64,000 nucleotides of DNA, from positions 7,161 through 71,160 of the forward strand of contig DCKY01000187.1 of NCBI GenBank assembly GCA_002320775.1, given 5' to 3'. The notes beneath the pieces are model-generated. The model was not told where the DNA came from, ran no database searches, and saw only the letters and a program-made list of their open reading frames with translations. Of this stretch, positions 7,164 to 29,499 are shown in pieces. The position numbers were made by a program, and so were the translations under genes. The stretch comes from Planctomycetes bacterium UBA1662 (GTDB lineage: Bacteria; Planctomycetota; UBA8108). How positions within the stretch are numbered: position 1 is the first letter of the stretch; each line of letters begins with the position of its first letter.

Positions 7164-9869
7164 ATGGTGTTCCCAGTCACCTGTTCCAGGTGTATTTTCC
7201 GCTTCGTTCGCCTCTCCTTCCTGTTGCTGGTATGGTTCGCATCCTGGCATCAGGGGAGTGTAGAGGCGCAGGAGTATTCACGGCCGGTCCGCGTTGGAAC
7301 GATCAGCGACCCAAGGATTGATGAAATCTCGGGGATGGTTCCCATCACCGGGCGCCGGGACTATTTCTGGGTCCATAATGACTCGAAGGACGCGGCGCGT
7401 TTGTTCGCGGTTCGCAAAGATGGGGCCCTGGTGGCTGAGGTGGACCTGCCCGGAGCCTCCAATACCGACTACGAGGATATCGCCACCGGCCCCGGCTCCG
7501 ACCCAACTCGCGTCTATCTCTTCATCGCCGATACCGGGAACAACGCGCTCAATCGAAACGAGCTGGTGATCTGGCGTCTGCCCGAGCCCTCTCTGCCGTC
7601 AGTGAACCTTAACCAGAGCCTGGTCGCGGAGAGGTCGGAGGCGATACGTTTTCGCTATCCCGCCGGGACCTATAATAACGAGTCCCTGATCGTTCATCCC
7701 GCCACGGGGATTCTCTATCTCATCACTAAGGTCAATGGTCCGGCCGGCGTGTACCGCTTTCCCAGGAGCACTCCGGGGGGTGCCGTACAGACGCTCGTTC
7801 GTATCGCCACCATGAATATTGGCGGCCTGGTGACAGCCGCCGACCTTACCGGTGACGGCCGCCGTATGCTGGTGCGAACCTTTCCCGCGGTCCAGGAATA
7901 TCGACTTCCGGATGGGGTTCCTTTCGAGAGGATCTTTACCCAGCCGCGGATCATTCTTCCAAATGCAGGCGCTGCCGAACCCAAGAGCGAGTCGATCTGC
8001 TTTGACCTGGATGACCGGGATTTCTTCACCTCCAACGAGGGGAACCCTGCTCCGATTCACCAGACCAGCCTGCTGCGGGAGCAGCCCTTCTGCGTTGAGG
8101 AGAATCCGCCGGTTCTGGCAGGAAGCTTTACCCGTGGAGACCTGGTTGAAGATGGTCCGAAGGGAGGCGAGGTCGACCTGAAGGATGCGATGATTCTTTT
8201 GAGGGTTCACCGGGAGGGAATTGCCCTGCCGTGTCCGGATGCGGCTGATTTCAATGATAACGGACTTCTTGACCGGGAGGATTTCGACGCTTTTATGCAG
8301 GCGTTGGCAGATGGCATCGCCCCCGCGCCACCCTATTCCATCCCGGGGATCGATCCGACCCCCGACGAGCTCGACTGTGGGCTGCAGAGGTCGGTCACCC
8401 TGGTGCCAGCCGGGGCCTCCTGGAGGTATTGGTATTCCCTCGATGCTCCGGGGGATGGCTGGAGCCGGGAGACATTCGATGACACATCCTGGCAAGAGGG
8501 CCAGTCGGGAATCGGGTTCGGCTCGGCGACAGTCCTGACCGCGCTCGACATGCTTCTGAGCCAGCGGAGAGTCTTCTATGCCAGGTGCCGGTTCGATATC
8601 TCAGACCCGGCCGCGGTGAACGCGCTTCTTCTGAGAATCGATTACAACGATGGATTCGTCGCTCATATCAACGGCCTGGAGGTGGCTCGCCGGGGGCTTG
8701 GAGATCCCGGCTTCGCCATCGCGGACTCCGCCTACGCCCGCTATCATCGCGGCGGAATCACTGAAGATGTTTTTCTTTGCCGAGAGCCGCTGCGGCCGGG
8801 TGAAAACATACTGGCTCTCGAAATCTACAACCGCTCCCGGCTTGACCGGTCGCTGTTTTTCAGCGCCGAGCTGATGGATGTGAGAGACAACCAGGCCTCG
8901 GCGCCGGTTCTTCCCCGTATCGAGGGAACCGCGGCCGTTCGCGTAGAAATGGAGCCGCCGCCGAATCTTGAGGGCCAGGGGAGCCTGGGGCTCTATTGCC
9001 GCGGAGATGTTCCTGTCCTGGCCGGCAGCCTCGCCCTCGGCTATTCGAGCGAGCATTTTGATTTTTTCGATCCGGGTACGGAGGCCGAATTCGACTGGTG
9101 GCGGCTTTCGGTGGATGATGAAGCTGGAACGATCTCCTGTGTTTTCGTCTGTGACACCGATGGCCAGGGCCCCCTGGGGCTTCCGTCCGGGGTGGATACC
9201 GAATTGGGAAAGCTCCGGTATACGGTCAGGGCTGAGCGCTCGGGGACCACCCGCATCCGCTTCCAGGAACGACCGGGAGAGCTCCCGCTGAATAATATCC
9301 TGCTGGGAGAGGGAGGGGGAGAGCTCGAACTGGCGACAGAGGATATCGAGATCGAGATCACCGACATTCGGCTGCCCTACATCGTCGATTACGTCAACGC
9401 GCGCGGCCGGCAGGGGGGGATCTTCTACATTGTCGGGCGGCATTTCAGCTCCGGGGTGAATTCGTTGCGCGTGTGCGGCCGGGAGGCGGAGTTTGAGCTG
9501 CTCGCTGATGGTCAGACTGTGCAGGCTATCGCGCCGGGCTGTGAGCTGGCCGGGCCGGCCAGCGTAGAGATTTGTACTGAGGCCGGCTGCTATCTCGATG
9601 AGGAGGGCTTCTTCTATACCGAGGGAAATGGGGCCTGGGTTCGCGGGGACTCCAACGGAGACGCTCTCCTCGATATCTCCGATCCCATCCTGATGCTGGG
9701 CCGCCTTTTCCTGGGCGAGCTGACACGGGAGACCTGCTCCTCTGCTCTCGACGTGAACGCGGATGGAGCCTTCGACATCTCCGACCCCATCATTCTGCTG
9801 CGATTTCTCTTCCAGGGAGATGTGACCCTCACCCCTCCCCTGGCCGCCTCCCCGGCGTTGTGTCCCTGA
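7164..9869 (+). CDS. Large secreted multidomain protein: N-terminal phytase/esterase-like beta-propeller-like region, internal EF/dockerin-like pair, jelly-roll module, cohesin-like segment, C-terminal dockerin-like module.
   Basis: The 901 aa product has a signal peptide. It contains the W..YDD..W..GFG...YNDGFVAHINGLEVAR module that also occurs twice in the 23650..29499 protein. The segment LAGSLALGYSSEHFDF ... AGTISCVFVCDTDG resembles cohesin signatures. The C-terminal repeats are GDSNGDALLDISDPILMLGRLFLGE and DVNADGAFDISDPIILLRFLFQGD. Confidence 0.65.
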   Translation: MVFPVTCSRCIFRFVRLSFLLLVWFASWHQGSVEAQEYSRPVRVGTISDPRIDEISGMVPITGRRDYFWVHNDSKDAARLFAVRKDGALVAEVDLPGASNTDYEDIATGPGSDPTRVYLFIADTGNNALNRNELVIWRLPEPSLPSVNLNQSLVAERSEAIRFRYPAGTYNNESLIVHPATGILYLITKVNGPAGVYRFPRSTPGGAVQTLVRIATMNIGGLVTAADLTGDGRRMLVRTFPAVQEYRLPDGVPFERIFTQPRIILPNAGAAEPKSESICFDLDDRDFFTSNEGNPAPIHQTSLLREQPFCVEENPPVLAGSFTRGDLVEDGPKGGEVDLKDAMILLRVHREGIALPCPDAADFNDNGLLDREDFDAFMQALADGIAPAPPYSIPGIDPTPDELDCGLQRSVTLVPAGASWRYWYSLDAPGDGWSRETFDDTSWQEGQSGIGFGSATVLTALDMLLSQRRVFYARCRFDISDPAAVNALLLRIDYNDGFVAHINGLEVARRGLGDPGFAIADSAYARYHRGGITEDVFLCREPLRPGENILALEIYNRSRLDRSLFFSAELMDVRDNQASAPVLPRIEGTAAVRVEMEPPPNLEGQGSLGLYCRGDVPVLAGSLALGYSSEHFDFFDPGTEAEFDWWRLSVDDEAGTISCVFVCDTDGQGPLGLPSGVDTELGKLRYTVRAERSGTTRIRFQERPGELPLNNILLGEGGGELELATEDIEIEITDIRLPYIVDYVNARGRQGGIFYIVGRHFSSGVNSLRVCGREAEFELLADGQTVQAIAPGCELAGPASVEICTEAGCYLDEEGFFYTEGNGAWVRGDSNGDALLDISDPILMLGRLFLGELTRETCSSALDVNADGAFDISDPIILLRFLFQGDVTLTPPLAASPALCP
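8930..9290 (+). other. Cohesin-like segment (tentative) in the 7164..9869 protein.
   Basis: By eye it resembles type-I cohesin signatures: LxLGY(S/D)xxxxx(F/V), and GTIS(C/F)(V/L)F(V/L).D...G aligned against NGTISFLFLD. It needs profile confirmation. Confidence 0.3.
9640..9820 (+). other. Tandem dockerin-like module at the C-terminus of the 7164..9869 protein.
   Basis: It has two DxNxDGxxDISDPI..L..LF.G repeats. Confidence 0.55.
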
Positions 9870-13357: not shown

Positions 13358-13930
13358 TTAAACCGGCGATCCGATAGCCAGCTGGTAGCAGTGGGCGAAC
13401 AGCAGGTCGAATTCGAGCTCCTGTAGCTGTTCGAGGTCGAGGCGGCAGTTTTCAAGCTGCCCGCGGACAGCCGTTTCACAGGCATCGGTGAATCCGAAGG
13501 GGTCCCAGGAGGGTGAGATGAATCCCGCCAGGATCTCGGCATCCGTTATCGATGGAGCGGCCTCGGCGAGCTGTTCGAAAATGGCGTGTGGTCCCACCCT
13601 GTTGAACCAGTACTTGGAGTTGGGGTAGTCCGGCTCGAGCCGATGCATGATGGCATGCCAGTAGCTGCCCTCGGCCGAGCCGAGCCTCTGGCTCAGGTCA
13701 TGAGATTCCTCCTGGAAATCTCCGCGGAGCAGCAGGCCGCTGCGAATGCAGGTGGCCATCCCGGGGTCCACTTGCTCAGCTCCCAGGAGCTCCTCGTCAC
13801 TGAGCCGGGCGATCCGGTCCGGCCAGGGCTCGCTCAGGTCATAGGCCGGGGTAAGCCCCAGCAGGGGAATGTCCTGGCGAATCCGGCCAAGGATCCGCGC
13901 CGCCTGGCAGTCATCGGGTAGGTTTTGCAT
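13358..13930 (-). CDS. Hypothetical protein.
   Basis: The 190 aa ORF is convergent with pckA. I recognise no family. Confidence 0.4.
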   Translation of the reverse strand: MQNLPDDCQAARILGRIRQDIPLLGLTPAYDLSEPWPDRIARLSDEELLGAEQVDPGMATCIRSGLLLRGDFQEESHDLSQRLGSAEGSYWHAIMHRLEPDYPNSKYWFNRVGPHAIFEQLAEAAPSITDAEILAGFISPSWDPFGFTDACETAVRGQLENCRLDLEQLQELEFDLLFAHCYQLAIGSPV

Positions 13931-14030: not shown

Positions 14031-15074
14031 TCAGGGAGCCTTCCTGAGTTTCTTCGAAGCGCTCTCCAGGAATCGGCGCTCCTCGGAGCTCAGGCTCCCC
14101 ATTCCTTCTTTGTGAATTTTTTCAAGCAGTCCATCAAGACGTTCCCGGTCCCGGGCTTCTCGCTGTTCTTTTTTATCTTCTCGCCGCTGTTGTCTCTTGA
14201 GCTTCCATCCTTCAAAGAAGCCCCGGCGTTTCTCTCCCGGTCCCGGGTGTTCGAGGCTGGTATAGCCTTGAGAAAAATCATGGCCGAAGGCGCCGCTGTC
14301 CTCGGTGTCGTAGAGCACCTGCTCGCGGACCTGCCTGGCGGTCATGAAGTAGAACAGCCCGCAGAAGGCGCTCACAAATCCAAGCTCGTCAAGGAAGGGA
14401 TGGGCGAATCTCCAATTCTCATCTGAGAAGCCCAGGACGATGGTGGCGCCCCCGAAGAGGAGGGCGAGTATGGCGGTGAACTTCGAGATTTTCAGGGTGA
14501 GCTCCAGCGCGCCGTGATGGGAGCCCATCCTTCTCCACAGCACGCAGTGCAGAAGCCGTCCGCCGTCCAGGGGGTAGCAGGGAAGAAGGTTCACCAGGAG
14601 GAGAACGAAGTTCCAGAGGAAGAGGTATTGCAGCAGGCGCTGCCAGAAAATCGGCTGGCCCGAAAAGGGCAGAAACTCAAGCTCCAGGAGAAGGCAGGCC
14701 GCTGTGACCAGCAGTCCTAGTCCCAGGTTGACGAGAGGCCCTCCTGCTGCGACCCAGAACTGCGCGCGATGGTCATGCGGCGCCTCGCATACCGCCAGGC
14801 CCCCAAGGGGCCAGAGGATGATTCTCTCCGTTCTTCCGCCCTGCCTGTGAGCGGCGTAGGCATGGCCGAGTTCATGCAGCAGGATCGTCAGCAGGAGCGC
14901 CAGGGCGAAGGCCGCGAAGGCCAGCAGGGGCGTTCCGTACTGGCCGTGATTTTGCAGCAGGATGTCGAACAGCTTGAGGCCGATGATCAACAGGAGGATC
15001 CAGTGCGCCCAGATGTCGATTCCAAACAGGCGGCTTACCCGCAGGCCAGAGTGACGGAAGGAGTTTTCTCTCAT
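14031..15074 (-). CDS. Site-2 protease family (peptidase M50) membrane zinc metalloprotease.
   Basis: It has the HELGH zinc motif, the LDGG motif (NLLPCYPLDGGRLL) and multiple TM helices. I trimmed the ORF start to MRENSF at 15074. The track's upstream extension to 15359 is low-complexity and overlaps the aminotransferase gene. Confidence 0.8.
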   Translation of the reverse strand: MRENSFRHSGLRVSRLFGIDIWAHWILLLIIGLKLFDILLQNHGQYGTPLLAFAAFALALLLTILLHELGHAYAAHRQGGRTERIILWPLGGLAVCEAPHDHRAQFWVAAGGPLVNLGLGLLVTAACLLLELEFLPFSGQPIFWQRLLQYLFLWNFVLLLVNLLPCYPLDGGRLLHCVLWRRMGSHHGALELTLKISKFTAILALLFGGATIVLGFSDENWRFAHPFLDELGFVSAFCGLFYFMTARQVREQVLYDTEDSGAFGHDFSQGYTSLEHPGPGEKRRGFFEGWKLKRQQRREDKKEQREARDRERLDGLLEKIHKEGMGSLSSEERRFLESASKKLRKAP

Positions 15075-15099
15075 CAGGCTTCGCCTTTGCGGTCCATTT

Positions 15100-16263
15100 T
15101 CATCGGGTCTTTCCAAGGAGGCCTTCGAGGCGCGCGATGGCTGCGCCCAGCTTCTCCATCGAGGTGGCGTAGGACAATCGAATATAGCCCTCTCCGCTCG
15201 AGCCGAAGGATGCTCCTGAGAGCACGGCGACCCCGGCCTCAACAAGGAGCTTAGTGGCCAGGTCGTCGGAGGACATGCCGGTCCCGGTGATGTTGGCGAA
15301 GGCGTAGAAGGCTCCGCCGGGCGGAGCGCAGCTGATTCCGCGGATCCCGTTGAGGGCATCGACGAGGAAATCCCTCCGCTGGCGGAACTCGCTGACCATG
15401 GCGAGGACGGAGTCCTGCGGGCCGCGCAGGGCCTCGACGGCCGCGTGCTGGCTGAAGGTGCAGGCGCAGGAGGCTATGTTGACGTTGTAAAGATCGAAGG
15501 TCTCGACCAGGGCGGGGGGGAGAATGGCGAATCCCAGCCGCCAGCCGGTCATCGAATAGGTCTTTGAGAAGCCATCGACGATGATGGTCCGGCCATCCGC
15601 GTTCTCAACGGAGGCGATGGTTTCAAATGGCGAGTCGTAGCAGAAGTGAAGGTAGATTTCATCACTGAGGATCGTGATGTCATGTTCGGCGGCCGCGGCG
15701 GCTACCGCCTCGAGGTCTTCGAGCTCGAGGACGCCGCCGGTAGGGTTCTGGGGCGAGTTGAGGATCACCAGCCTGGTGCGGTCGGATACCAGCGCGCGAA
15801 ATTCATCGGTATCGAAGCGGAAGCCGGTTTCCTCGCGAAGAGGCAGCGGTACCGCTCTGGCGCCGGAATGGGCTATCACAGACTGGTAGGCGGGAAAGCC
15901 GGGGTCGGGGTAGATGACCTCGTCGCCCGGGCCCGCGAGAGCGTTGATCGTATAGAAGAGCAGGGCCTTGGCGCCGGGGGCTACCACGACCTGGTCCGGG
16001 CTGAACTCAAGGCCTCGAAGGGCTCCAGCTTTTTCAGCGATGGCGGCGCGCAGTTCAGGCAGTCCCTGGGATGGGCCGTAGCCCGTATGTCCATCGGCGA
16101 GGGCTTGTACGGCGGCCTCTTTGACGTGGTCGGGGGTCGGGAAATCGGGCTGACCGATCTCGAGATGGATGATCTCCTGGCCGGCGGCCTCGAGTTCCTG
16201 CGCCCGCCGCAGTACGTCAAAAGCCGATTCACCGGCAAGTTGTCGCGCTCGTTCATGCAGCAT
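15100..16263 (-). CDS. Pyridoxal-phosphate-dependent aminotransferase, class I (aspartate/aromatic-type).
   Basis: The 387 aa product has the PLP-lysine block SKTYSMTGWRLGF, and the N-terminal IHLEIGQPDFPTP motif. Confidence 0.85.
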   Translation of the reverse strand: MLHERARQLAGESAFDVLRRAQELEAAGQEIIHLEIGQPDFPTPDHVKEAAVQALADGHTGYGPSQGLPELRAAIAEKAGALRGLEFSPDQVVVAPGAKALLFYTINALAGPGDEVIYPDPGFPAYQSVIAHSGARAVPLPLREETGFRFDTDEFRALVSDRTRLVILNSPQNPTGGVLELEDLEAVAAAAAEHDITILSDEIYLHFCYDSPFETIASVENADGRTIIVDGFSKTYSMTGWRLGFAILPPALVETFDLYNVNIASCACTFSQHAAVEALRGPQDSVLAMVSEFRQRRDFLVDALNGIRGISCAPPGGAFYAFANITGTGMSSDDLATKLLVEAGVAVLSGASFGSSGEGYIRLSYATSMEKLGAAIARLEGLLGKTR

Positions 16264-16365
16264 GAAAGTATGATAGCCAGCGGCGGGCAGACTCTACACT
16301 TGAAAGTATCCGGTCAGAGCATCAAACTGCAGCCCTGTAAGAGCTTCGGCCTGACCTGGTGAGAG

Positions 16366-17388
16366 ATGATGCAGACAGCGAAAAGTCATAAACCGCTCCA
16401 GTTGGGATCCAACCTGACCATCTGGCCCCCGGTCGTTCTTGCGCCCATGGCAGGGGTGACGAACTATCCCTACCGTAAGATCTGTTCCGAGCTTGGCGCC
16501 GGTCTCTGCGTCAGCGAGATGGTGAGTTCGAGGGGTATTCTCGAGGGGCATCGCGGCACCTGGAAGCTGGTTCATTTCGCTGAGACCGAACGCCCCCGCT
16601 CCATACAGATCTTTGGCGGCGACCCTGTGGCTATGGGCGAGTCTGCCCGCCGGCTCAAGGATGAGCTGCAGGTAGACCATATCGATATCAACTTCGGCTG
16701 CCCGGTCAAGAAGCTGGTCAACAAGGGGATGGGCGCCGCTGTACCGACGAATCCTGAGAACTGCCGTGCGGTGGTTCGAGCTGTCGTTGAAGCGGTCGAT
16801 CCCTTGCCGGTCACGATCAAGGTCCGGCTGGGCATCGATGATGAAAACCTCACATTCCTCGACGCGGGTCGAATCGCCCAGGAGGAGGGCTGCTCATGGA
16901 TCACCGTGCACGGCCGCACGGTGAAGCAGATGTACTCGGGAAAGGCCAATTGGGAGCTCATCGCGGAGCTGAACGACAAGATCGAGATCCCGGTGCTTGG
17001 CAATGGTGATATCTTCGAGGCCGAAGACGGGCTGGAGCGTATGCGCAGGGCCGGGGTTCCCGGTATCGTGATTGGCCGGGGCTGCCTGGGAAATCCGTGG
17101 CTCTTTCGTGAACTGAGGGCTCTCTTCGATGGAGAGGCTCCGCCGCCGAGGCCGGCAGTCGAGGAGATTGTCGAGATGGTTCGTGAACATTTCCAACTGC
17201 TCCTCGTTCACTATGGAGAATCCGAGAGGGCGGCGATTCTCAGGATGCGAAAATTCGGAGCCTGGTACGCCACAGGTTTTCACGGCGCGGCTGAATTCAG
17301 GCGCCGCTTCAACACGGTCCGCAGCGGCGAAGAGCTCGAGGAAATTCTCGGGCTCTGGCTGGCGGGGCAGTCGCAGAGGGAGGGCTGA
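16366..17388 (+). CDS. dus: tRNA-dihydrouridine synthase.
   Basis: It has PMAGVTNYPYRKI, an FMN-binding TIM barrel and the conserved Cys region. Confidence 0.9.
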   Translation: MMQTAKSHKPLQLGSNLTIWPPVVLAPMAGVTNYPYRKICSELGAGLCVSEMVSSRGILEGHRGTWKLVHFAETERPRSIQIFGGDPVAMGESARRLKDELQVDHIDINFGCPVKKLVNKGMGAAVPTNPENCRAVVRAVVEAVDPLPVTIKVRLGIDDENLTFLDAGRIAQEEGCSWITVHGRTVKQMYSGKANWELIAELNDKIEIPVLGNGDIFEAEDGLERMRRAGVPGIVIGRGCLGNPWLFRELRALFDGEAPPPRPAVEEIVEMVREHFQLLLVHYGESERAAILRMRKFGAWYATGFHGAAEFRRRFNTVRSGEELEEILGLWLAGQSQREG

Positions 17389-17392
17389 GCGC

Positions 17393-18673
17393 ATGGTCGG
17401 CAGGAAGAGCCAGCAACCGGACGAATTGCGCTACAGGGTGGTTCTGGGAGACTCGCGCTCGATGGCCGACGTCGAGGATGGCTCAGTGCACCTGGTGGTG
17501 ACCTCCCCTCCCTACTGGCAGTTGAAGGACTACGAGGCCGAGGACCAGATCGGCTTTCACCAGGAATACGATGAGTACATCGGCGAGCTTGACAGGGTCT
17601 GGGGCGAATGCGAGCGGGCACTCCACCCTGGCTGCAGGCTGGCGGTCAATATCGGCGACCAGTTCCTTCGCGCCAAGACCTACGGCCGGTACCGGGTCGC
17701 GGCGATCCATGCGGATATCATTCGCGGCTGTGTCGGCCGGGGTCTCGATTTCATGGGCTCGATCATCTGGCAGAAGGTGACGACGATGAACACATCCGGG
17801 GGCGGAGTGATCATGGGCTCCTTTCCCTATCCCCGCAACGGTATCGTGAAGCTCGATTACGAGCACATCCTGCTGTTCAAGAAGCTGGGCAAGGCTCCGC
17901 GGCCGGATCCCGCGCAGAAGGAGCTCTCGCGCCTGAGCACGGAGGAGTGGAACGAGTATTTCTACGGTCACTGGACCTTTCCTGGCGCCAGGCAGGAGGA
18001 CCATATCGCTGTTTTTCCCCGTGAGCTTCCCCGCCGGCTGATCCGAATGTTCACCTTCGCCGGGGAGACGGTTCTCGATCCCTTCCTCGGCAGTGGAACC
18101 ACGTTGAGCGTGGCGCGCGAGCTGGGCCGGTCCTGTACGGGCTACGAGCTCAACCCCGCGTTCCTCGCTACCATTCGCGAGAAGACGGGGTTTGGTGAAC
18201 AAAAGGAGTTTTTTCACGGGCAAGAGAAGTTGGAGGTGATCGACAAGCTTCCGTTCGCGGACGAAGAGAACGGCAAGGCGGGCGAACCCTCCGCCAGGGG
18301 GCCGGCTGGGAGCTTTGGTTCCGTCATTCGAAAGGGCGACAGCCGGCGGCGGGAGGAGTATCACCGGGTCCGGGAGGTTCTGGACGTTCGGACGATTGAG
18401 CTCGAAGACGGCAGGAACCTGAAGCTCCTTGGCCTGATCGAGGCCGGCGGAGCGGGAGGGGCGGAGCGTCTTCGCGAGCTGGTCGATGGGAAGCAGGTCT
18501 ATTTCAAGAACGATCCCGGGACAGATGGAGAGGATGGGGTCTATCTCTACCTGCGTAACAGGACCTGCATCAATTCACGGTTGATCAGGGATGGGGCTGC
18601 CGGAGTTGACGAGGGTCGTGAATACAGGATGAAGAAGCGGTTCCTGCGCTACCGGGCTGAGCTCGAATCCTGA
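17393..18673 (+). CDS. DNA methyltransferase, beta-class (SPPY motif IV then DPFLGSGTT motif I). Likely N4-cytosine/N6-adenine. It has a C-terminal SNase-like (degenerate) domain.
   Basis: I trimmed the start to the ATG at 17393, 5 bp after the dus stop. Motifs are VVTSPPYW and DPFLGSGTT. The C-terminal ~140 aa (VLDVRTIELEDG...LLGLIEAGGAG...GKQVYFKND...DGVYLYLRN) follow the staphylococcal-nuclease fold pattern, but the catalytic residues are altered. Confidence 0.75.
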   Translation: MVGRKSQQPDELRYRVVLGDSRSMADVEDGSVHLVVTSPPYWQLKDYEAEDQIGFHQEYDEYIGELDRVWGECERALHPGCRLAVNIGDQFLRAKTYGRYRVAAIHADIIRGCVGRGLDFMGSIIWQKVTTMNTSGGGVIMGSFPYPRNGIVKLDYEHILLFKKLGKAPRPDPAQKELSRLSTEEWNEYFYGHWTFPGARQEDHIAVFPRELPRRLIRMFTFAGETVLDPFLGSGTTLSVARELGRSCTGYELNPAFLATIREKTGFGEQKEFFHGQEKLEVIDKLPFADEENGKAGEPSARGPAGSFGSVIRKGDSRRREEYHRVREVLDVRTIELEDGRNLKLLGLIEAGGAGGAERLRELVDGKQVYFKNDPGTDGEDGVYLYLRNRTCINSRLIRDGAAGVDEGREYRMKKRFLRYRAELES

Positions 18674-18682
18674 GTCCCGCTC

Positions 18683-19510
18683 CTATCCGGCCTCCAGGTG
18701 ATCAAGGAGCGCCGCTCCCTCATCGAGGCCCGGGGCGAGGAAGTGAGCCCCCGCCTTCAGCAGCCGCTCGCGCTTGCCGCTGTTCATATGGTAGCGGTTC
18801 TTTTCCCGGGTGTGGATACCGAAGGCTACGGCCCCGGTTTCCCGGCCATCCTGGATCTCGACATAGCCATCTCCAATGACGATGAGCTCGGGACCGTCGA
18901 GGCCGTGGCCCGAGATGATTCGCTCGATCACCATTCGCTTCGAGAAGTTTTCGTATTGTCGAAGCGCTCCGAATATCCGGTCCTCGAAAAGATGCTCGAA
19001 GCCCAGGAGGGCGGCGTCTCTTCGAACCAGGTCCTCATCCGTTCCGCTGGCGAGGTAGCAGGTCACTCCGCGTCCCGCCAACTCCTCCAGGAAGGCAAGT
19101 GAGCCGGGGACCAGGAAATCTCCGGGCGGAAGCAGGCCGTCCTCAATCGCCGAGAGCCGGTCCGAGATGGCGGCATCGAGCCGGTCATTGTAGAGCGCCT
19201 TGTATTCAAGGGGCTCCAGCGGCGAGCCGCCGCGCCTCTTGATCTCCTCGCAGAGGCGGATCATCTGGTAGATGGTCTGCTTGCCGGTGAGCTTGTCTAC
19301 GAACCCGGTCACCAGCGCCTCGATTTCTTCGCGGGACTCGTCCCGTCCGCAGTCCTCAAGCAGGTCGACCATCAGGGGGACCATCTGGTCCTGCCATCCA
19401 TCCCTGAGCAGGGACAGGGTGCCATCGAGATCAAAGAGGGCGTAGCGGAGGGGCCTCCGCCGCGGCTCCTCTACGATCTCGATGGCTGTCCCGGGTATCC
19501 TGGGGAGCAA
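18683..19510 (-). CDS. HAD-superfamily hydrolase/phosphatase.
   Basis: It has motif I FDLDGTL. Confidence 0.7.
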   Translation of the reverse strand: MLPRIPGTAIEIVEEPRRRPLRYALFDLDGTLSLLRDGWQDQMVPLMVDLLEDCGRDESREEIEALVTGFVDKLTGKQTIYQMIRLCEEIKRRGGSPLEPLEYKALYNDRLDAAISDRLSAIEDGLLPPGDFLVPGSLAFLEELAGRGVTCYLASGTDEDLVRRDAALLGFEHLFEDRIFGALRQYENFSKRMVIERIISGHGLDGPELIVIGDGYVEIQDGRETGAVAFGIHTREKNRYHMNSGKRERLLKAGAHFLAPGLDEGAALLDHLEAG

Positions 19511-19516
19511 CCGCGA

Positions 19517-20032
19517 TTAACCGGCGGCAGCGCCTACGGCGGCGAGGGCCGCGTCGTAATCGGGATGATCGGTCATCTCCGGAACGACCTCGACATAGGT
19601 AATCTTGTTCTCGGCATCGACAACGAAGATCGCGCGGGTCAGGAGCTTGAGCTCCTTGATCAGCACGCCATAGGCGTTGGCGAAGGAGAGCTCACGGTGG
19701 TCCGACAGGGTCGTCATTTCGACCTCTTCGGCACCGCACCAGCGGCCCTGCGCGAAGGGCAGGTCGGCGCTGACGGTGAGAACCTCGACATTTTCCGGAA
19801 GTCCGGAGATTTCTCCGGCGAAACGCTTGGTCTGCTCGGAGCAGACGCCGGTATCGAGCGAGGGAACCACCGAGATCAGCCTTACCTTGCCGGCTGAGGA
19901 GGCAAGGTTTACGGCTTCTAGGCCGCCATCGATCACATCAAAATCAGGTGCCTGGTCGCCAGCCTGCAATACCGGTCCTACGAGGGTCAGGGGCGCTCCC
20001 TGGAAAGTTACTCCGCCTTCTCTTTCGCTCAT
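19517..20032 (-). CDS. tpx: Thiol peroxidase (atypical 2-Cys peroxiredoxin Tpx).
   Basis: The 171 aa product contains SLDTGVCSEQTKRF with the peroxidatic Cys. Its length is typical of Tpx. Confidence 0.85.
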   Translation of the reverse strand: MSEREGGVTFQGAPLTLVGPVLQAGDQAPDFDVIDGGLEAVNLASSAGKVRLISVVPSLDTGVCSEQTKRFAGEISGLPENVEVLTVSADLPFAQGRWCGAEEVEMTTLSDHRELSFANAYGVLIKELKLLTRAIFVVDAENKITYVEVVPEMTDHPDYDAALAAVGAAAG

Positions 20033-21787: not shown

Positions 21788-22912
<1,125 letters not shown>

Positions 22913-22924
22913 GGGGCTCCGGAG

Positions 22925-23359
22925 ATGCAGGGTGATGCTTCTGAGGCTGAATCCATTGAAGACGCCGATTCCGATGAGGCCGTCCGGTATGGCCGGGGTT
23001 TTTCCTGGGTCGAGGGTGAGCCGGGCAGCCTGGAAGAGATGGTCGAGATAGCTTTTGACTACCGCGGCGACGTGAGCATTCTGCTTAGAGACGAGGATGA
23101 CCTGGTCGGCTATCTTGCCAACCGCTCCATCTCTCAGCAGGCTCCGGCAGAGTCGTGGATCGAGGTTTTTCCTGCTGCCGGGGGGGCCAGGAGGAGGATC
23201 TCGCTGGCGGCTATTCGGGGGCTGATCCTGAGTGGAAAAGACGTTGCTTCCGGAAAGTCCTGGGAGAACTGGTTGAAAAAGTATACTGAACGTCGAGACG
23301 CTCTCGCCCGGGGGGAAGATGTGGAGAATATCGATCTCTTCCCCGATGAGCTGGACTGA
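22925..23359 (+). CDS. Hypothetical small acidic protein, 13 bp downstream of hpnH.
   Basis: The 144 aa product is acidic. I recognise no family. Confidence 0.35.
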   Translation: MQGDASEAESIEDADSDEAVRYGRGFSWVEGEPGSLEEMVEIAFDYRGDVSILLRDEDDLVGYLANRSISQQAPAESWIEVFPAAGGARRRISLAAIRGLILSGKDVASGKSWENWLKKYTERRDALARGEDVENIDLFPDELD

Positions 23360-23649: not shown

Positions 23650-26600
23650 ATGAGAGCACCGATGAAGATCTTCTGTCCTGTCGTCAGCCGGACGGCAGTT
23701 TTATTTTTTATAGCGGCTCTGCTCCTGGGCCACGCAGGCCTGCGCGCGGGTGAATTCGACATCATCATCAATGAGCTGAACTACAACGTCTTTGACAACG
23801 GCGGCGAGGACAGCCTGGAGTTCATCGAGCTCTACAATCGCGGAGGGACAGTCGTCGATCTAAGCGGCTGGGATTTCTCCCGCGGTGTGGACTTCACCTT
23901 TTCCGCGGGGACCATGGTCGAGCCAGGCGAGTATCTTGTCCTGAGTCCTGACCCTGCGGCCGCAGCGGCTCGCTATGGATTGCAGCGCGTCCTGGGACCC
24001 TATCTTGGTCAGCTGGATAATGGCGGCGAGATCCTCGAGCTTCTCAATTCGAAGGGGCAGATGATCAGCCGGGTTCATTATGACGACAGTACGCCCTGGT
24101 CAGGCCGGCCGGATGGCCGGGGGCCGTCGCTGGAGTTTACCGGCGTTGACAATGCCAATAGCCTGGCGAGAAACTGGAAGCCCAGCAAGACTCTCGGGGG
24201 AACTCCCGGACGGGTCAACTCACGCAGGGTGCTGCCCTCGCGCCTGAGCCAGCGAGGTCCGCGTCCTATCGTCTCGTCACAGGGTATCTGGAGGACTTTC
24301 GCCGGCCGCTCAAACCCTTCGGATCCGATAGATGCCTGGACCCGGCTTGACTTTGATGACGAGGATTGGGGCGAGGCCCAGGGAGGCTTCGGGTACGGGC
24401 AGCGGGTCGGCTTCAACTTTTCGACCCAGATCAGCAATATGCGCCGCGAGTTCAACACCTACTACATCCGCAGTAACTTTACAGTTACAGAGGACACCCT
24501 GGCGGCAATTACCGATGGGTCGATTGATCTCAGCCTGACAGTCTCCTATGACGATGCCTTTGTCGCCTACGTAAATGGTACGGAGGTGGCCAGGGACAAT
24601 GTTGGCGACCCCGGGGAACCGGTTGCCTTTGATGCCACCGGGGATGAGAGCCGCAACGAAACGGCTCGTGTTGAGCTCCCCGGCATTGCAGACCTCCTGG
24701 TTGAGGGCGAAAATGTTTTCGCGCTCCAGGGTGTCAATGCTACACGGAACAGCAGGGACTTCTATATCGCCGCCGATCTGCTCATGGCGGAGAACTCTCA
24801 GGATGAGAAGGAAGATGAATCGGCAAATCCCTACATCGGAAGAATTATCAACGAGCTGCTGGCCGGTGAAGGGGATGACCCGGGCTTTATAGAGCTCTTC
24901 AATCCCGAGGACGAGGAGCTCGACCTCAGCGGTAATGTCCTGCTCTCCAGTCGCGGTAATTTTCTCTACGAGATTCCCGGCGGGACCGTTCTTGCCCCGG
25001 GAGAGTTTGTAGTCTTTGACAGCAAGGTGTTGGCTCTTCCTGTTCCAGCCGGCGGCGCCCGCTATGTTCTGCTTGCGGCCGATGGCCGCACTGTTCTCGA
25101 TGACATCGATGTCGAGATCGAGACGCCTGGCCGAAGTGTGGGCCGTTTCCCTGAGGGGGATGAAGATGTCTACGTGCTGGACCAGCCGACCAACGGCGCG
25201 GCCAACACCTATGCGTACAGCTCACCGGTGGTCATCAACGAGATTCATTTTCATCCGCCCTATGTTCCCGCCGGCAAGGACTGCTCCCGACAGTGTTCGG
25301 ACGCTCGTCAGTGGGTTGAGCTGTTGAACCGCAGCGAGGAAGCTGTGGACCTTGGCGGCTGGAAGCTCACCAATGGAATCAGGTATACCTTCGAGCCCGG
25401 CACCATCCTGGCTGCCGGAGCCTACCTTGTCGTAGCCTCTTCACTGGAGGAATTTTCGGCGCTCCACGATGGTGTCGAAAATGTCGTCGGCGACTGGTCC
25501 GGGCGTCTCAACCACGCCACCGAGACGATCAACCTGCGTGATGGTCTCGGTAACCGTGTCGACAGGGTGATCTACGGAGACGGCGGCGCGAAGAATGACG
25601 AGGATCCCGATGATGGAGTGGACGATCGCACCTTCCGCGGCAGCACCTGGCCGATACTTGCGGATGGAGATGGCCCCACCATCGAACTCATCAACCCGGG
25701 CCTCGGCAACCGGGCCGGTGTTTCCTGGAGGGCCTCCAATGATGCCGGTGGAACTCCCGGTGTCCAGAACTCAGTTTTTGAGGCGGACCCCGCCCCCTCG
25801 ATCAGGTCGGTGAAGCATTCCCCCGCCGTTCCGCGCAGCGATGAGGCCGTGGTGGTGACCTGCTCGATCTCGGCTCTCGAGGCTCTGACCGAGGCCGAGG
25901 TCCAATGGTCGATAGCGGGAGGCCCCTCCGGCAACGCGAATCTTCGAGACGATGGCGCGGGTCCTGATGAGCTCGCCCAGGATGGCGTCTTCTCAGCCAG
26001 TATCCCGGCGCAGGATGATGGGGACATCGTTAGATTCTCGGTCGTTGCCGCGACTGGCGCTGGCGGCAGAGTTCGTCTGCCGCTTGAGCCGGAGGCGGAC
26101 CCTTTCCGCGGGTTCCAGGGGGTCTTCTATCTCTACGAGGTAGATAATTCGAATCCGCCGGATACCGGCGCTGCGGTCTTCCGCATCATCATGAATCCGA
26201 ACGACAGCGATGAGCTTGAGGACCGCGATGAGGACAGCAACGTTCTCCTGCCGGCGACGCTGATCTGCGATGGAGAGATCTACTATTGCGCCGGTGTTCG
26301 TTATCGAGGCGAGAACTCACGTCGATTGACCAACAAGGCCTTCAAGATCAGGCTCCCGCCGGAGAATTCCTGCAAGGGTATTGGAAATATCAATCTGCTT
26401 GCGGGTAATGGAAATGATTTCGGCACCTCGACCTTCAACGAGCTTCTCTCTTCCGATCTCTATCGAAGAGCTGGTGCGCCTTACCCCCAGGAATGGAACG
26501 CTGTCCTGCATTTTGCCGGAGTTGTGGGACGTAATTACGACACCCGCTACATTCGCAAGGAGGCCTATGACGATGACTTCCTCACGCGTTTCTTCGCCGG

Positions 26601-29499
26601 CAATTCAGGAGGTAACTTCTACCGCCCAATGGACCCGGGCGGCCGGGTAATGGGCAACCTGGAATACCAGGGGACCGACCCTGAAGACTACCGCCGTATT
26701 TACGACAAGAGGTCGAATGAGGATGAGGATGATTTCAGCGATGTCATCGAGCTGACGAGAATGTTTGATGCCGACGAAACTCCCCAGGCCGAATTCAGGC
26801 AGAGAGCCGAGGAGCTGATCGATGTTCGGCAATGGGCGCGCTTCTTTGCCATCATGGCATGTGTAACGAATACCGATGGGGGCATCTGGAACGATGGAGG
26901 GGAAGATTATTTCCTCTATCGCATGCCTGCCGATGCCGATCGCCCCGATGCCGGGAAATGGCTGATCCTGTGCTGGGACCTGGAGGAGACCTTTACCGGC
27001 AGCAATGAGAGGCTCTTTCGTCCGGAGGCCGACGGGCTCCAGAGATTTTTTGCCGTACCCGAGTTCGCTCGTCTTTATTACGAGGAGCTGCTGATTGTCA
27101 GGAGAGCGGTCTTCTCCCGGGCCCAGATGCGCCAGCGATACGGCTACGCCGAGGTGATGTTTCCACCCGAGGATGTCTACGATGTCGTCGATGAGGTCGA
27201 CACGACCGTTACCGAACGCCTTGGCTATTTCGATGCCAACATCACCCTGGGGGTCGAAGGCGGCGCGCGCCGCAACAACGATGGCGGCAGCCGGCTTATT
27301 GATACGGGAGAATCCTGGCGCTATTTCCGGGGTACGGAGGATCCCCCGGGAGACGGTCTCGCCTGGACGCGTCTCGGCTACGACGATGAGACCTGGGAGA
27401 CGGGTGAGAGCGGCTTCGGCTACGGGGATGGAGATGATGCCACCGTGCTCGGCGACATGCGGAATAACTATACGACCGTATTTATCAGGAAGACCTTCGA
27501 GCTCGAAGACCCGGCTGCCATCGAGGAGCTGACCCTCATCATGGATTATGACGATGCTTTTGTCGCCTTCATCAATGGAGAGGAGATCGCTCGATCGAAC
27601 AACGCTCCTGACGGAGCGGTTGACTATGAATCAACCTCGACCTCGAACCACGAGGCTGGAGATGACCTTGACCGCTTTAATATCTCCATGGACAAGATTC
27701 GCGCCGGCGAGAACGTTCTCGCTATATTGGGCATCAACGGCGACCTGCCCTCCAGCGACTTCTCCCTCATTCCGGTCCTGACCTCGACCCTTGCCGGAGC
27801 TGTGGCGGGTCCCACCGGCGGCTGCGGCGATAGTATCTACACCACGGGTTCAACGATCATTCTCGCGGGCCTGGCGGATCCGGTGAACACGAGGTCCGTG
27901 GTCGTTCGAGGCCGTGAGGCGGCGCTCGATATGGTGAGTGATGGCAATGGCCCTTACGGTCTGCGCTGGCAGGTGGAGGTCAGCGGCCTGGAGCCTGGGG
28001 AAAACCTCGTCGAGGTCATCGCCCTTGATGGAGAGGCAGGAAAAGGCGAGCCGATTGCCAGCTTCGAAGCCGTGATCCATCGATTTGAAGGCGATTTCCG
28101 CGAGTACGATGGAGCCCTCGATGGAGATGAGGAATGGACGGCAGAGGGAGGCCCCTACAGGTTGAGGGGAAATGTGAGAGTGCCGGATGGGACGACCCTT
28201 CGCATTCGCCCGGGAGCCGTGGTGCTGGCCGATGCGGGCGCCTCGATTATTGTCAGTGGAGAGCTTCGCGCTGAGGGCAGCGAAGAATCACCGATTATCA
28301 TGCGGGCCTTCTCCTGCGCCGATGAGTGGGGCGGAATCGCGTTTAACGAGACCGGTACAGATGAAGATGATCCGACTCACCTGCTGAGCTTCTGTGATAT
28401 CAGGGGAGGCTCGAATGCGGACGACTACGAGGGCTGCATCGCTCCGACGGACTCTCGATTGCTGGTGACCGACTGCCATCTCGAGAACATCCCGGGCAAT
28501 GCGATCGATGGGGTGGACGCTGTCCTCGAGGTTCGGCGGACGACCATTCGCAACATCTTCGAGGGGATCCACTGCGAGGACTCCGACACGATCGTGCTTG
28601 ATACGATCATCGAGAATATGACGGGTAATAGCGACGCGATTGATTTTGATGGCAGCGGCTCCGGACGATCCAGGATCCAGGGGTGCATTTTCTACGGCAG
28701 CTCCGACGATGGAGTTGACCTCGGCGAGGTGTCGGTCGATATCAAGGACAACATCTTTGTGGACATTGCCGACAAGGCGATTTCGATCGAAGATGTCGGA
28801 GACCAGGGACACCCGACGATCAGCGGGAATCTGATCGTTCGCTGCGGCACCGGCATGGCGATCAAGAATGGGATTACGATCTCGGAGGGGGATCACAACA
28901 CCATCACCGAATGCCAGGAGGGTATCGCACTTTTCGCTAAGGATGAGAGCAACGAGGGCGGGCACGCGACCTTCCACAGCGTCATCTGCTGGGGAAATGC
29001 CATCGATGTCATCGTCGATGAGCTCTCAACGGTCGCTTTCGATTTTTCGAACATCGGGATGGACGAGTGGCCCGGGGAGGGAAATCTCTCGGTCGATCCC
29101 CTCTTTCTTGACCCTGCCGGTCTTGACTACACTCTGGCCGCCGGGTCTCTCTGCATCGGTACAGGCAGGGAGGGCAGTGACATGGGGGCCTTCAGCTTTG
29201 AAGGCGGCGGGCCAGATCCCGAGGATACGGTTTTCCTGCGCGCCGATGCCAATCTGGATGGCGAGGTTGACGTCTCAGATGCTATCGCAACGCTCGATTA
29301 TCTCTTCCGCGGCGGACCTGGACCCGATTGTCTCGATGTGATGGATGCCAACGATGATGGACAGCCGGATGTTTCCGATGCCGTGTTCCTGCTGCGCTAT
29401 CTCTTCTCCGCGGGCTCCCCTCCGCCCGCCCCCTTCCCGGAGTCCGGGACCGACCAGACGCCCGATGGACTCTGGTGTCCTGCCGGCCCGGCCAATTGA
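23650..29499 (+). CDS. Giant secreted protein (1949 aa): 3x lamin-tail domain, 2x jelly-roll module, CotH kinase-like domain, right-handed beta-helix, C-terminal dockerin-like module.
   Basis: It has a signal peptide. LTD signatures are FDIIINELNYN...LEFIELYN, IINELLAGEGDDPGFIELFNPED and VVINEIHFHPP. The CotH block is FKIRLPPENS...LLAGNGNDFG...RNYDTRYIRKEAYDD...FYRPMD. The W..YDD..W..GFGYG...YDDAFVA(Y/F)(V/I)NG.E(V/I)AR module occurs twice. The beta-helix repeats include IENMTGNSDAIDFDG, GCIFYGSSDDGVDLG and ITISEGDHNTITEC. The C-terminal repeats are ADANLDGEVDVSDAIATLDYLFRGG and MDANDDGQPDVSDAVFLLRYLFSAG. Confidence 0.8.
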   Translation: MRAPMKIFCPVVSRTAVLFFIAALLLGHAGLRAGEFDIIINELNYNVFDNGGEDSLEFIELYNRGGTVVDLSGWDFSRGVDFTFSAGTMVEPGEYLVLSPDPAAAAARYGLQRVLGPYLGQLDNGGEILELLNSKGQMISRVHYDDSTPWSGRPDGRGPSLEFTGVDNANSLARNWKPSKTLGGTPGRVNSRRVLPSRLSQRGPRPIVSSQGIWRTFAGRSNPSDPIDAWTRLDFDDEDWGEAQGGFGYGQRVGFNFSTQISNMRREFNTYYIRSNFTVTEDTLAAITDGSIDLSLTVSYDDAFVAYVNGTEVARDNVGDPGEPVAFDATGDESRNETARVELPGIADLLVEGENVFALQGVNATRNSRDFYIAADLLMAENSQDEKEDESANPYIGRIINELLAGEGDDPGFIELFNPEDEELDLSGNVLLSSRGNFLYEIPGGTVLAPGEFVVFDSKVLALPVPAGGARYVLLAADGRTVLDDIDVEIETPGRSVGRFPEGDEDVYVLDQPTNGAANTYAYSSPVVINEIHFHPPYVPAGKDCSRQCSDARQWVELLNRSEEAVDLGGWKLTNGIRYTFEPGTILAAGAYLVVASSLEEFSALHDGVENVVGDWSGRLNHATETINLRDGLGNRVDRVIYGDGGAKNDEDPDDGVDDRTFRGSTWPILADGDGPTIELINPGLGNRAGVSWRASNDAGGTPGVQNSVFEADPAPSIRSVKHSPAVPRSDEAVVVTCSISALEALTEAEVQWSIAGGPSGNANLRDDGAGPDELAQDGVFSASIPAQDDGDIVRFSVVAATGAGGRVRLPLEPEADPFRGFQGVFYLYEVDNSNPPDTGAAVFRIIMNPNDSDELEDRDEDSNVLLPATLICDGEIYYCAGVRYRGENSRRLTNKAFKIRLPPENSCKGIGNINLLAGNGNDFGTSTFNELLSSDLYRRAGAPYPQEWNAVLHFAGVVGRNYDTRYIRKEAYDDDFLTRFFAGNSGGNFYRPMDPGGRVMGNLEYQGTDPEDYRRIYDKRSNEDEDDFSDVIELTRMFDADETPQAEFRQRAEELIDVRQWARFFAIMACVTNTDGGIWNDGGEDYFLYRMPADADRPDAGKWLILCWDLEETFTGSNERLFRPEADGLQRFFAVPEFARLYYEELLIVRRAVFSRAQMRQRYGYAEVMFPPEDVYDVVDEVDTTVTERLGYFDANITLGVEGGARRNNDGGSRLIDTGESWRYFRGTEDPPGDGLAWTRLGYDDETWETGESGFGYGDGDDATVLGDMRNNYTTVFIRKTFELEDPAAIEELTLIMDYDDAFVAFINGEEIARSNNAPDGAVDYESTSTSNHEAGDDLDRFNISMDKIRAGENVLAILGINGDLPSSDFSLIPVLTSTLAGAVAGPTGGCGDSIYTTGSTIILAGLADPVNTRSVVVRGREAALDMVSDGNGPYGLRWQVEVSGLEPGENLVEVIALDGEAGKGEPIASFEAVIHRFEGDFREYDGALDGDEEWTAEGGPYRLRGNVRVPDGTTLRIRPGAVVLADAGASIIVSGELRAEGSEESPIIMRAFSCADEWGGIAFNETGTDEDDPTHLLSFCDIRGGSNADDYEGCIAPTDSRLLVTDCHLENIPGNAIDGVDAVLEVRRTTIRNIFEGIHCEDSDTIVLDTIIENMTGNSDAIDFDGSGSGRSRIQGCIFYGSSDDGVDLGEVSVDIKDNIFVDIADKAISIEDVGDQGHPTISGNLIVRCGTGMAIKNGITISEGDHNTITECQEGIALFAKDESNEGGHATFHSVICWGNAIDVIVDELSTVAFDFSNIGMDEWPGEGNLSVDPLFLDPAGLDYTLAAGSLCIGTGREGSDMGAFSFEGGGPDPEDTVFLRADANLDGEVDVSDAIATLDYLFRGGPGPDCLDVMDANDDGQPDVSDAVFLLRYLFSAGSPPPAPFPESGTDQTPDGLWCPAGPAN
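26100..27150 (+). other. CotH (atypical kinase) domain within the giant protein.
   Basis: See the CotH motifs listed for the parent CDS. Confidence 0.6.
29236..29415 (+). other. Tandem dockerin-like module at the C-terminus of the giant protein.
   Basis: It has two DANxDGxxDVSDA...YLF repeats. Confidence 0.55.

Follow-up and report, generated by a model that had tools for sequence, protein, structure and literature searches.

Conserved orphan methylases of the CTAG type make up a short list, drawn from Leptospira and the haloarchaea. LomA of pathogenic Leptospira is an orphan methylase that places N4-methylcytosine (m4C) in CTAG. About 80% of sites are methylated, and the enzyme is a global regulator needed for virulence that shares 45% identity with M.MthZI (PMC7708080). 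HVO_0794/Zim, conserved in most haloarchaea, is likewise an orphan CTAG m4C methylase (PMC5867850; PMC4752239) and is classed with the beta-type 4mC CTAG methylases (PMC5867850). M.MthZI (from plasmid pFZ1 of Methanothermobacter), M.MjaI and M.BfaI are beta-type 4mC CTAG methylases of 303-364 aa (PMC5867850). These last three belong to restriction-modification (RM) systems. Here we describe a related gene in Planctomycetes bacterium UBA1662, located in a 64-kb stretch of contig DCKY01000187.1 (hereafter the window). It encodes a complete protein of 426 aa in which a beta-class amino-methyltransferase domain is fused to a C-terminal domain with the fold of staphylococcal nuclease (SNase), and no restriction endonuclease gene lies beside it. 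From sequence comparisons we consider it likely that the gene encodes a solitary m4C methylase of the MjaI/CTAG family, which probably forms Cm4TAG on both strands and marks the host genome rather than serving in restriction defence. With this locus, a bacterial phylum would join the few lineages that have conserved orphan CTAG-type methylases.

The likeness to the enzymes of RM systems lies in the catalytic domain. M.MthZI, M.MjaI and M.BfaI share with the window protein the beta class, a TSPPY-type motif IV and a DPFLGxGTT motif I. M.MthZI (355 aa) aligns with query residues 14-295 over 307 positions at 31% identity (E 5e-37), and its gene adjoins one annotated as "MjaI family restriction endonuclease" on pFZ1. 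The three enzymes differ from the window protein in being distant in sequence, in belonging to RM systems, and in having no SNase-like domain, as follows from their length. LomA and HVO_0794/Zim, which we compared through their published descriptions rather than by sequence, resemble the window protein in being solitary, conserved within a clade, chromosomal and related to CTAG RM methylases. LomA also carries TSPPY, and a LomA variant with the serine of this motif changed to alanine did not complement the phenotypes of a lomA mutant (PMC7708080). Both LomA and the haloarchaeal enzyme are probably of the short form that lacks the SNase-like domain. Judged by these analogies, LomA and HVO_0794/Zim are the closest characterised precedents for the window gene, and CcrM is not.

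An earlier note on this DNA, made from the sequence alone, had proposed a resident methylase outside defence in the manner of CcrM. The first half of that proposal agrees with the missing endonuclease, conserved synteny, monophyly and purifying selection described below. The comparison with CcrM holds as a functional analogy only, because CcrM belongs to a different beta-class subfamily that makes N6-methyladenine (m6A) at GANTC. Caulobacter CcrM is also an orphan and is also built from an N-terminal methylase domain, a linker and an accessory C-terminal domain. It is a dimeric beta-class enzyme whose C-terminal domain binds DNA nonspecifically, is required for activity and contacts the non-target strand (PMC6787082). 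It differs in its DPPY-type adenine pocket, in the SAND/PWWP-like fold of its C-terminal domain and in its linker, which has 10 residues where the window protein has about 30. The NCBIfam model NF050803 (DnaMtaseCcrMCaul) scores 35.9 bits against the window protein, with a cutoff of 830, and aligns only with residues 204-264. The NCBIfam equivalogs PRK11524, CcrM and PRK13699 were considered as names for the protein and rejected, all of their scores lying far under the cutoffs.

The catalytic domain matches Pfam N6_N4_Mtase (PF01555) over residues 32-261 (E 2e-36; 126.4 bits against a cutoff of 26.7) and covers positions 1-219 of the 221 in the model. Motif IV lies N-terminal to motif I, which is the circularly permuted order of the beta class. 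The earlier assignment to this class, made from SPPY followed by DPFLGSGTT, is confirmed, with the two strings at residues 38-41 and 229-237. Among solved structures, the nearest is TTHA0409 of Thermus thermophilus HB8 (PDB 2zie, 2zif and 2zig), a putative beta-class methylase, with 2zie matching residues 14-264 (E 4e-59). TTHA0409 forms a dimer, as do other beta-class enzymes (PMC7544214, PMC10406627); it is 297 aa long and differs in having no C-terminal SNase-like domain. An AlphaFold2 (AF2) model of the full-length protein is confident over residues 9-287, except in the 130-150 loop, where the per-residue confidence score (pLDDT) falls below 50 at residues 130-139 and 142-150.

By sequence, the window protein falls among the methylases partnered with MjaI-type (CTAG) endonucleases, in a subfamily made longer by the SNase-like tail. 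Its identity to full-length homologues runs from 96 to 47%, with 92-100% query coverage, and the PADLOC MTase_II model PDLC03259 aligns from model position 4 to 422 of 423 with residues 14-420 (E 7e-134). The homologue search gave at least 8000 matches, and a scan of a one-genome-per-species collection yielded 596 relatives. These span Bacteroidota, Ignavibacteria, Deltaproteobacteria, Spirochaetes, Gemmatimonadota, Calditrichota and one Methanothermococcus metagenome-assembled genome (MAG), and their identity to the window protein across phyla is 47-54% over the full length. Gene neighbourhoods were fetched for the best 80 loci, 77 of which lie outside Planctomycetota. A conserved gene encoding about 212 aa follows the methylase on the same strand in 59 loci, with a median gap of 22 bp, and in one more it lies downstream but on the opposite strand. 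Its product matches Pfam RE_MjaI (PF09568), with E values of 6e-50, 3e-28 and 7e-48 for three variants, and a profile search raised the count to 61 of the 77 non-Planctomycetota loci. At least three of the 16 loci without RE_MjaI (L048, L076 and L079) have no more than about 1 kb of sequence after the methylase. The SNase-tailed fusion family is, for most of its members, the predicted M subunit of MjaI-type (CTAG) type II RM systems.

The window protein shares with this RE_MjaI-linked family (PDLC03259) its end-to-end architecture, its invariant loops and its inactive SNase-like domain. The Planctomycetota clade to which it belongs differs in having no adjacent endonuclease and in being embedded in a vertically inherited block of housekeeping genes. 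The family is met in two states: in many phyla as the mobile gene that protects DNA in a CTAG restriction system, and in the marine Planctomycetota lineage as a vertically inherited solitary gene. The fusion itself is already present in model sets derived from RM systems, namely PADLOC MTase_II; new here are the size of the family, the family-wide loss of nuclease residues, the linkage to RE_MjaI and the endonuclease-free Planctomycetota clade. A search of the PLSDB plasmids gave 202 records that match the methylase domain only (at most 66% coverage), so the fusion is not seen on catalogued plasmids; the same search retrieved pFZ1 with M.MthZI.

Two loci of the wider family deserve separate mention. 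A Methanothermococcus sp. MAG (L039, NZ_WAKW01000076.1, positions 823-2118) carries an RE_MjaI-like gene as well as a full-length fusion (48% identity to the window protein), and this archaeal copy suggests that the long form has been transferred between bacteria and archaea. In the RM-linked member of Bacteroidia bacterium PG1894_40 (L057, positions 8001-9284) the methylase match is interrupted by an in-frame stop, which may reflect a pseudogene or a sequencing error.

The absence of an endonuclease is consistent across the Planctomycetota. The earlier note had seen no restriction endonuclease gene next to the methylase, and this stands over a wider range: domain scans found no nuclease domain within 10 kb on either side of the gene, a six-frame search of the 64-kb window, which was the part of the host genome covered, found no RE_MjaI-like ORF, and no RE_MjaI was found in the seven Planctomycetota loci that we compared (drawn from L001-L003 and L081-L085, with 56-96% protein identity to the window methylase). 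The window has the gene order pckA, an unknown gene of 190 aa, an M50 protease, an aminotransferase, dus, the methylase, a HAD-family hydrolase and tpx (both on the minus strand), proA, hpnH and an unknown gene of 144 aa. The window comes from a marine lineage of Planctomycetota, and its closest loci are L001 (UBA8108), L002 (UBA1146) and L003, whose methylases are 96, 95 and 83% identical. The full order is present in L002 and L003; the contig of L001 starts within dus and shows the same order from there on. In these three loci the methylase and its neighbours are conserved to a similar degree, Dus being 98, 98 and 92% identical and ProA 97, 96 and 87%. At greater distance, a TARA Oceans scaffold with 60% methylase identity (L081) retains the run from the aminotransferase through dus, methylase, HAD, tpx and proA to hpnH. 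In L083 (56% identity) the run from the methylase through HAD and tpx to proA is kept and a kinase gene replaces dus. Another relative of 60% identity has a Dus fragment upstream of the methylase. In L001-L003, L081 and L083 the methylase is followed by the HAD-tpx-proA block. The HAD gene sits where relatives carry the MjaI-family endonuclease, and forms the conserved downstream boundary of the orphan locus.

Phylogeny and selection point in the same direction. In a neighbour-joining tree rooted on M.MthZI and built without support values, the seven Planctomycetota sequences form one clade, which is sister to the rest of the family and is its deepest and most divergent branch. Pairwise ratios of nonsynonymous to synonymous substitution (dN/dS) are 0.04-0.07 in the methylase domain, 0.09-0.13 in the SNase-like domain and 0.15-0.29 in the linker. 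Since the ratio is low in both domains, both are maintained by selection without an endonuclease. These observations support the view that the window copy is a long-resident, vertically inherited orphan in a housekeeping neighbourhood, and being an orphan is here the state of one lineage within a family of RM methylases.

This evidence also bears on the possibility that the protein is the methylase of a functional CTAG RM system whose endonuclease is encoded outside the 64-kb window, in which case it would still serve in defence. Such an arrangement would fit a family that is overwhelmingly RM-linked, with RE_MjaI in most non-Planctomycetota loci, as well as the strong depletion of CTAG in the window, which is expected under restriction pressure, and the genome was searched over 64 kb only. 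Where the endonuclease is present, however, it is almost always directly adjacent and on the same strand, the seven Planctomycetota loci all have housekeeping genes on both sides in its place, and the methylase and the housekeeping genes around it evolve at the same rate. We regard a distant endonuclease as very unlikely and retain the solitary methylase as the preferred interpretation.

Twelve non-Planctomycetota loci with at least 2 kb of downstream sequence (L005, L009, L010, L015, L017, L020, L045, L049, L054, L062, L068 and L069) are also without RE_MjaI. In several of them the downstream genes are of a housekeeping kind, resembling ligA, rlmN or crcB by N-terminal sequence. These other orphans are scattered through the tree, and orphan copies of the fusion family appear to have arisen repeatedly.

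The specificity of the window protein was assessed from positions of the methylase domain with a conservation of at least 95% across 60 RM-linked members. The window protein has the same residue at 120 of 136 such positions, among them all 20 between residues 130 and 160 and 29 of the 30 between residues 161 and 225. The glycine-rich loop at residues 130-150 contains the invariant columns N133, G136, G137, M141, G142, S143, P145, P147, R148, N149 and G150. The most strictly conserved stretch of the family (TTxNTSGGGxIMGSFPYPRNG) is at the same time the least confident part of the catalytic domain in the AF2 model. Disorder of this kind is as expected for a DNA-recognition loop modelled without DNA, and residues 130-150 or thereabouts are probably an induced-fit recognition loop that orders when it contacts DNA. 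The TSPPY motif matches that of N4-cytosine enzymes. In the window, CTAG is the most depleted 4-bp palindrome, with 17 occurrences (about 0.27 per kb) against 230 expected from base composition (observed/expected ratio 0.07) and 67.5 expected from a second-order Markov model (ratio 0.25). This depletion is compatible with a CTAG-related history and is not specific to one. Three of the 17 sites (34759, 36782 and 46406) are intergenic, compared with about 7.5% intergenic DNA; the gene map is rough and the sample small, and we claim no enrichment.

The same data can be read as those of an orphan that has exchanged CTAG for a different short motif, or for adenine, with the SNase-like domain adding a new target preference. 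Release from an endonuclease lifts the constraint on specificity, the orphan clade branches deepest in the family, at about 50% identity to the RM-linked members, and 11 of the 16 conserved positions at which the window protein differs fall between residues 61 and 129. Yet the recognition loop and the segment that follows it are almost unchanged, TSPPY is typical of N4-cytosine enzymes, and CTAG is the palindrome most depleted in the window. A drifted specificity is accordingly judged unlikely, and CTAG is kept as the probable target.

Several points nevertheless weigh against a solitary CTAG m4C methylase. Many bacteria have few CTAG sites for reasons that have nothing to do with restriction. 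Both the recognition sequence and the m4C chemistry are transferred from RM-linked relatives of about 50% identity or from M.MthZI at 31%, no branch of the family has diverged further than the orphan clade, and a recognition sequence can shift over such distances; the placement of the clade comes in turn from the tree without support values. The characterised CTAG methylases are short and work without an SNase-like domain, and the domain is therefore not essential for CTAG recognition. An endonuclease could be encoded elsewhere in the genome, the search having covered 64 kb. Cotranscription of the methylase with dus is plausible and is drawn from the short gap between the genes only. In the published record, a marine metaepigenome study (PMC8919816) contains methylated CTAG only in a Marinimicrobia MAG and nothing for the Planctomycetota clade.

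The C-terminal domain retains the fold of SNase and has lost its active site. The final 157 aa of the protein, searched alone against Pfam, gave no match even at E<=1. Among 29 homologous C-termini, 21 match PF00565 (SNase), the best at E 2.8e-10, and about half of the full-length homologues have a precomputed PF00565 match. A profile of the domain searched against the PDB has only thermonucleases as top matches (E 5e-5), hhalign against SNase gives a probability of 83%, and a structure search also supports the SNase/OB fold of residues 320-426. An SNase-like C-terminus had been proposed in the earlier note from four short strings, all of which are present, and the profile and structure searches bear out the resemblance. 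The length given there, about 140 aa, was too great: the folded part is about 105 aa (residues 320-426), and residues 288-319, with pLDDT below 50, form a linker. By comparison with staphylococcal nuclease and with the non-catalytic SN-like domains found in Tudor-SN (SND1) and in extended Tudor domains, the present domain differs in being fused to a DNA methylase and in its shortened beta-hairpin and C-terminal helix regions.

Residues of the active site were compared in 120 homologues aligned to SNase, using staphylococcal nuclease numbering. In the window protein D21 is replaced by V, D40 by I, T41 by E and R87 by E, E43 falls in a gap, and R35 is replaced by K; the catalytic motifs are indeed degenerate, as had been suggested. 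Across the homologues no sequence has Asp at D21, where 83 have P and 21 have V. Lys or Arg prevails at D40, Glu or Pro at T41 and Pro or Ala at E43, and R87 varies. A basic residue (R or K) persists at R35 in 103 of the 120. Residues of the fold are retained, with Y91 and N100 invariant and Y93 a tyrosine in 106 sequences. The segment with Y113 and Y115 of the nucleotide-binding pocket is deleted in the family, which has a conserved motif of its own, YLYLxNRTxxN. Since the catalytic and metal-binding residues are absent, the nuclease site is predicted to be dead throughout the family and not just in the window gene, leaving a relative of the nuclease in fold with no nuclease function.

A cryptic active nuclease, which would make the protein a fused methylase-nuclease like the type IIG/IIC enzymes, is hardly credible in this light. 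The fold is genuinely that of SNase, the R35 equivalent is largely kept, and NCBI names one homologue a thermonuclease family protein; set against this, the Ca2+ ligands D21, D40 and T41, the general base E43 and R87 are gone here and family-wide, the tyrosines of the nucleotide-binding pocket lie in the deleted segment, and the RM-linked members have a separate, dedicated endonuclease. The preferred interpretation of the domain is as an inactive accessory module. Names given to homologues are inconsistent, including "adenine-specific" (JGI) and "thermonuclease family protein" (NCBI, P0068). Both labels are probably wrong for the family, given its TSPPY motif and dead nuclease site. A literature search on SNase-methyltransferase fusions found no relevant paper, and the SNase fold without an active site is in this setting a very common but unstudied accessory module.

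The start of the gene and its relation to dus were also considered. The dus stop codon (TGA, 17386-17388) is separated from the methylase ATG at 17393 by four bases (gcgc); the 5 bp given in the earlier note is correct when counted from the last base of the stop. An alternative in-frame ATG at 17129 would give a longer ORF overlapping dus by 260 nt. Because homologue alignments begin only at about residue 13 of the protein started at 17393, and because the longer ORF overlaps dus, the start at 17393 was kept. A promoter and terminator scan of positions 15900-19800 found nothing that resembles a promoter, and terminator-like sites were about as frequent as chance predicts; neither kind lies between dus and the methylase, and the scan is silent on cotranscription. 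Adjacency to dus is kept in L001-L003 and L081 and is absent in L083 and in all 77 non-Planctomycetota loci. As the linkage is not conserved across the clade, no functional tie to dus is implied.

The neighbouring dus gene raises the idea of an RNA methylase, acting on tRNA or rRNA in concert with Dus and using the OB/SNase-like domain to bind RNA. We give this very little credence, given the absence of dus linkage in L083 and in the other phyla, full-length identity of about 50% to enzymes encoded beside a DNA restriction endonuclease, and the fact that the closest characterised relatives are all DNA methylases. A tRNA-related function deduced from adjacency to dus was likewise rejected, the linkage being restricted to part of one clade.

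We propose the following mechanism for a solitary CTAG m4C methylase at this locus. The gene would probably be transcribed by read-through from dus, and its product would probably form a homodimer, as do other beta-class enzymes. The N-terminal Rossmann domain would bind S-adenosylmethionine through motif I, the invariant glycine-rich loop would probably read the site, and the target base would be flipped into the pocket formed by motif IV. The outer cytosine of CTAG would then be methylated at N4 on both strands of the chromosome. The SNase/OB domain, having neither metal-binding nor catalytic residues, could serve as a tethered nonspecific DNA-binding module. The role might be epigenetic regulation at the remaining CTAG sites, or immunisation against incoming MjaI-type RM systems; MjaI-type RM elements are abundant in co-occurring phyla. 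By analogy with CcrM and LomA we tentatively suggest, as a rather doubtful extension, that the SNase/OB domain is an accessory DNA clamp, of a kind not described before, with which the dimer holds the non-target strand, and that the enzyme is a long-resident epigenetic regulator acting at few CTAG sites. If true, an uncultured marine phylum of bacteria would have its own counterpart of LomA.

Features of the methylase gene, its flanking genes and the CTAG sites of the window are collected in Table 1.

Table 1. Coordinates of the methylase gene, its domains and motifs, its immediate neighbours and the CTAG sites, in positions of the window.
Feature	Coordinates	Strand	Basis
Solitary methyltransferase with SNase-like C-terminal domain, 426 aa, complete	17393..18673 (stop included)	+	ORF, full-length homologues
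Beta-class N4/N6 amino-methyltransferase domain, residues 1-287	17393..18253	+	Pfam PF01555, PDB 2zie
Motif IV (TSPPY)	about 17501-17515	+	residues 37-41
Motif I (DPFLGSGTT)	about 18077-18103	+	residues 229-237
Loop, residues ~130-150 (TTMNTSGGGVIMGSFPYPRNG), probable DNA-recognition/target loop	17780..17842	+	conservation, pLDDT
Flexible linker, residues 288-319, poorly conserved, with invariant FGS motif (G309, S310)	18254..18349	+	pLDDT, dN/dS
Non-catalytic SNase-fold (OB-fold) domain, residues 320-426	18350..18670	+	profile and structure searches
dus (tRNA-dihydrouridine synthase), directly upstream	16366..17388	+	Pfam Dus, E 1e-84
HAD-family hydrolase, convergent	18683..19510	-	Pfam HAD/Hydrolase
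CTAG sites in the window	5874, 14717, 19918, 33114, 34759, 36782, 37308, 38215, 38241, 38810, 44048, 44886, 46406, 52669, 55821, 57631, 59704		

Other genes of the neighbourhood were noted in passing. The longest ORF of the M50 protease (14031..15359, minus strand) overlaps the aminotransferase gene (15100..16263, minus strand) by about 260 nt; the homologue in L003 aligns from residue 33 only, and the real start of the protease is therefore probably further in. The ORFs of 190 aa (13358..13930, minus strand) and 144 aa (22925..23359, plus strand) have no Pfam or PADLOC match. Both are conserved in L002 and L003, the 144-aa ORF also in L001, and L081 has genes of similar size without a Pfam match at the corresponding positions. 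A radical-SAM protein with a DUF3463 domain is encoded at 21788..22912 (plus strand), adjoins proA across the clade and is presumably akin to the HpnH-type hopanoid side-chain enzymes, which it resembles. Further downstream, a gene at 23650..29499 (plus strand) encodes a protein of 1949 aa with Lamin-tail (LTD) repeats, a CotH kinase-like domain and a NosD/beta-helix region, and a homologue with LTD, CotH and Beta_helix domains is found at the equivalent position in L083.

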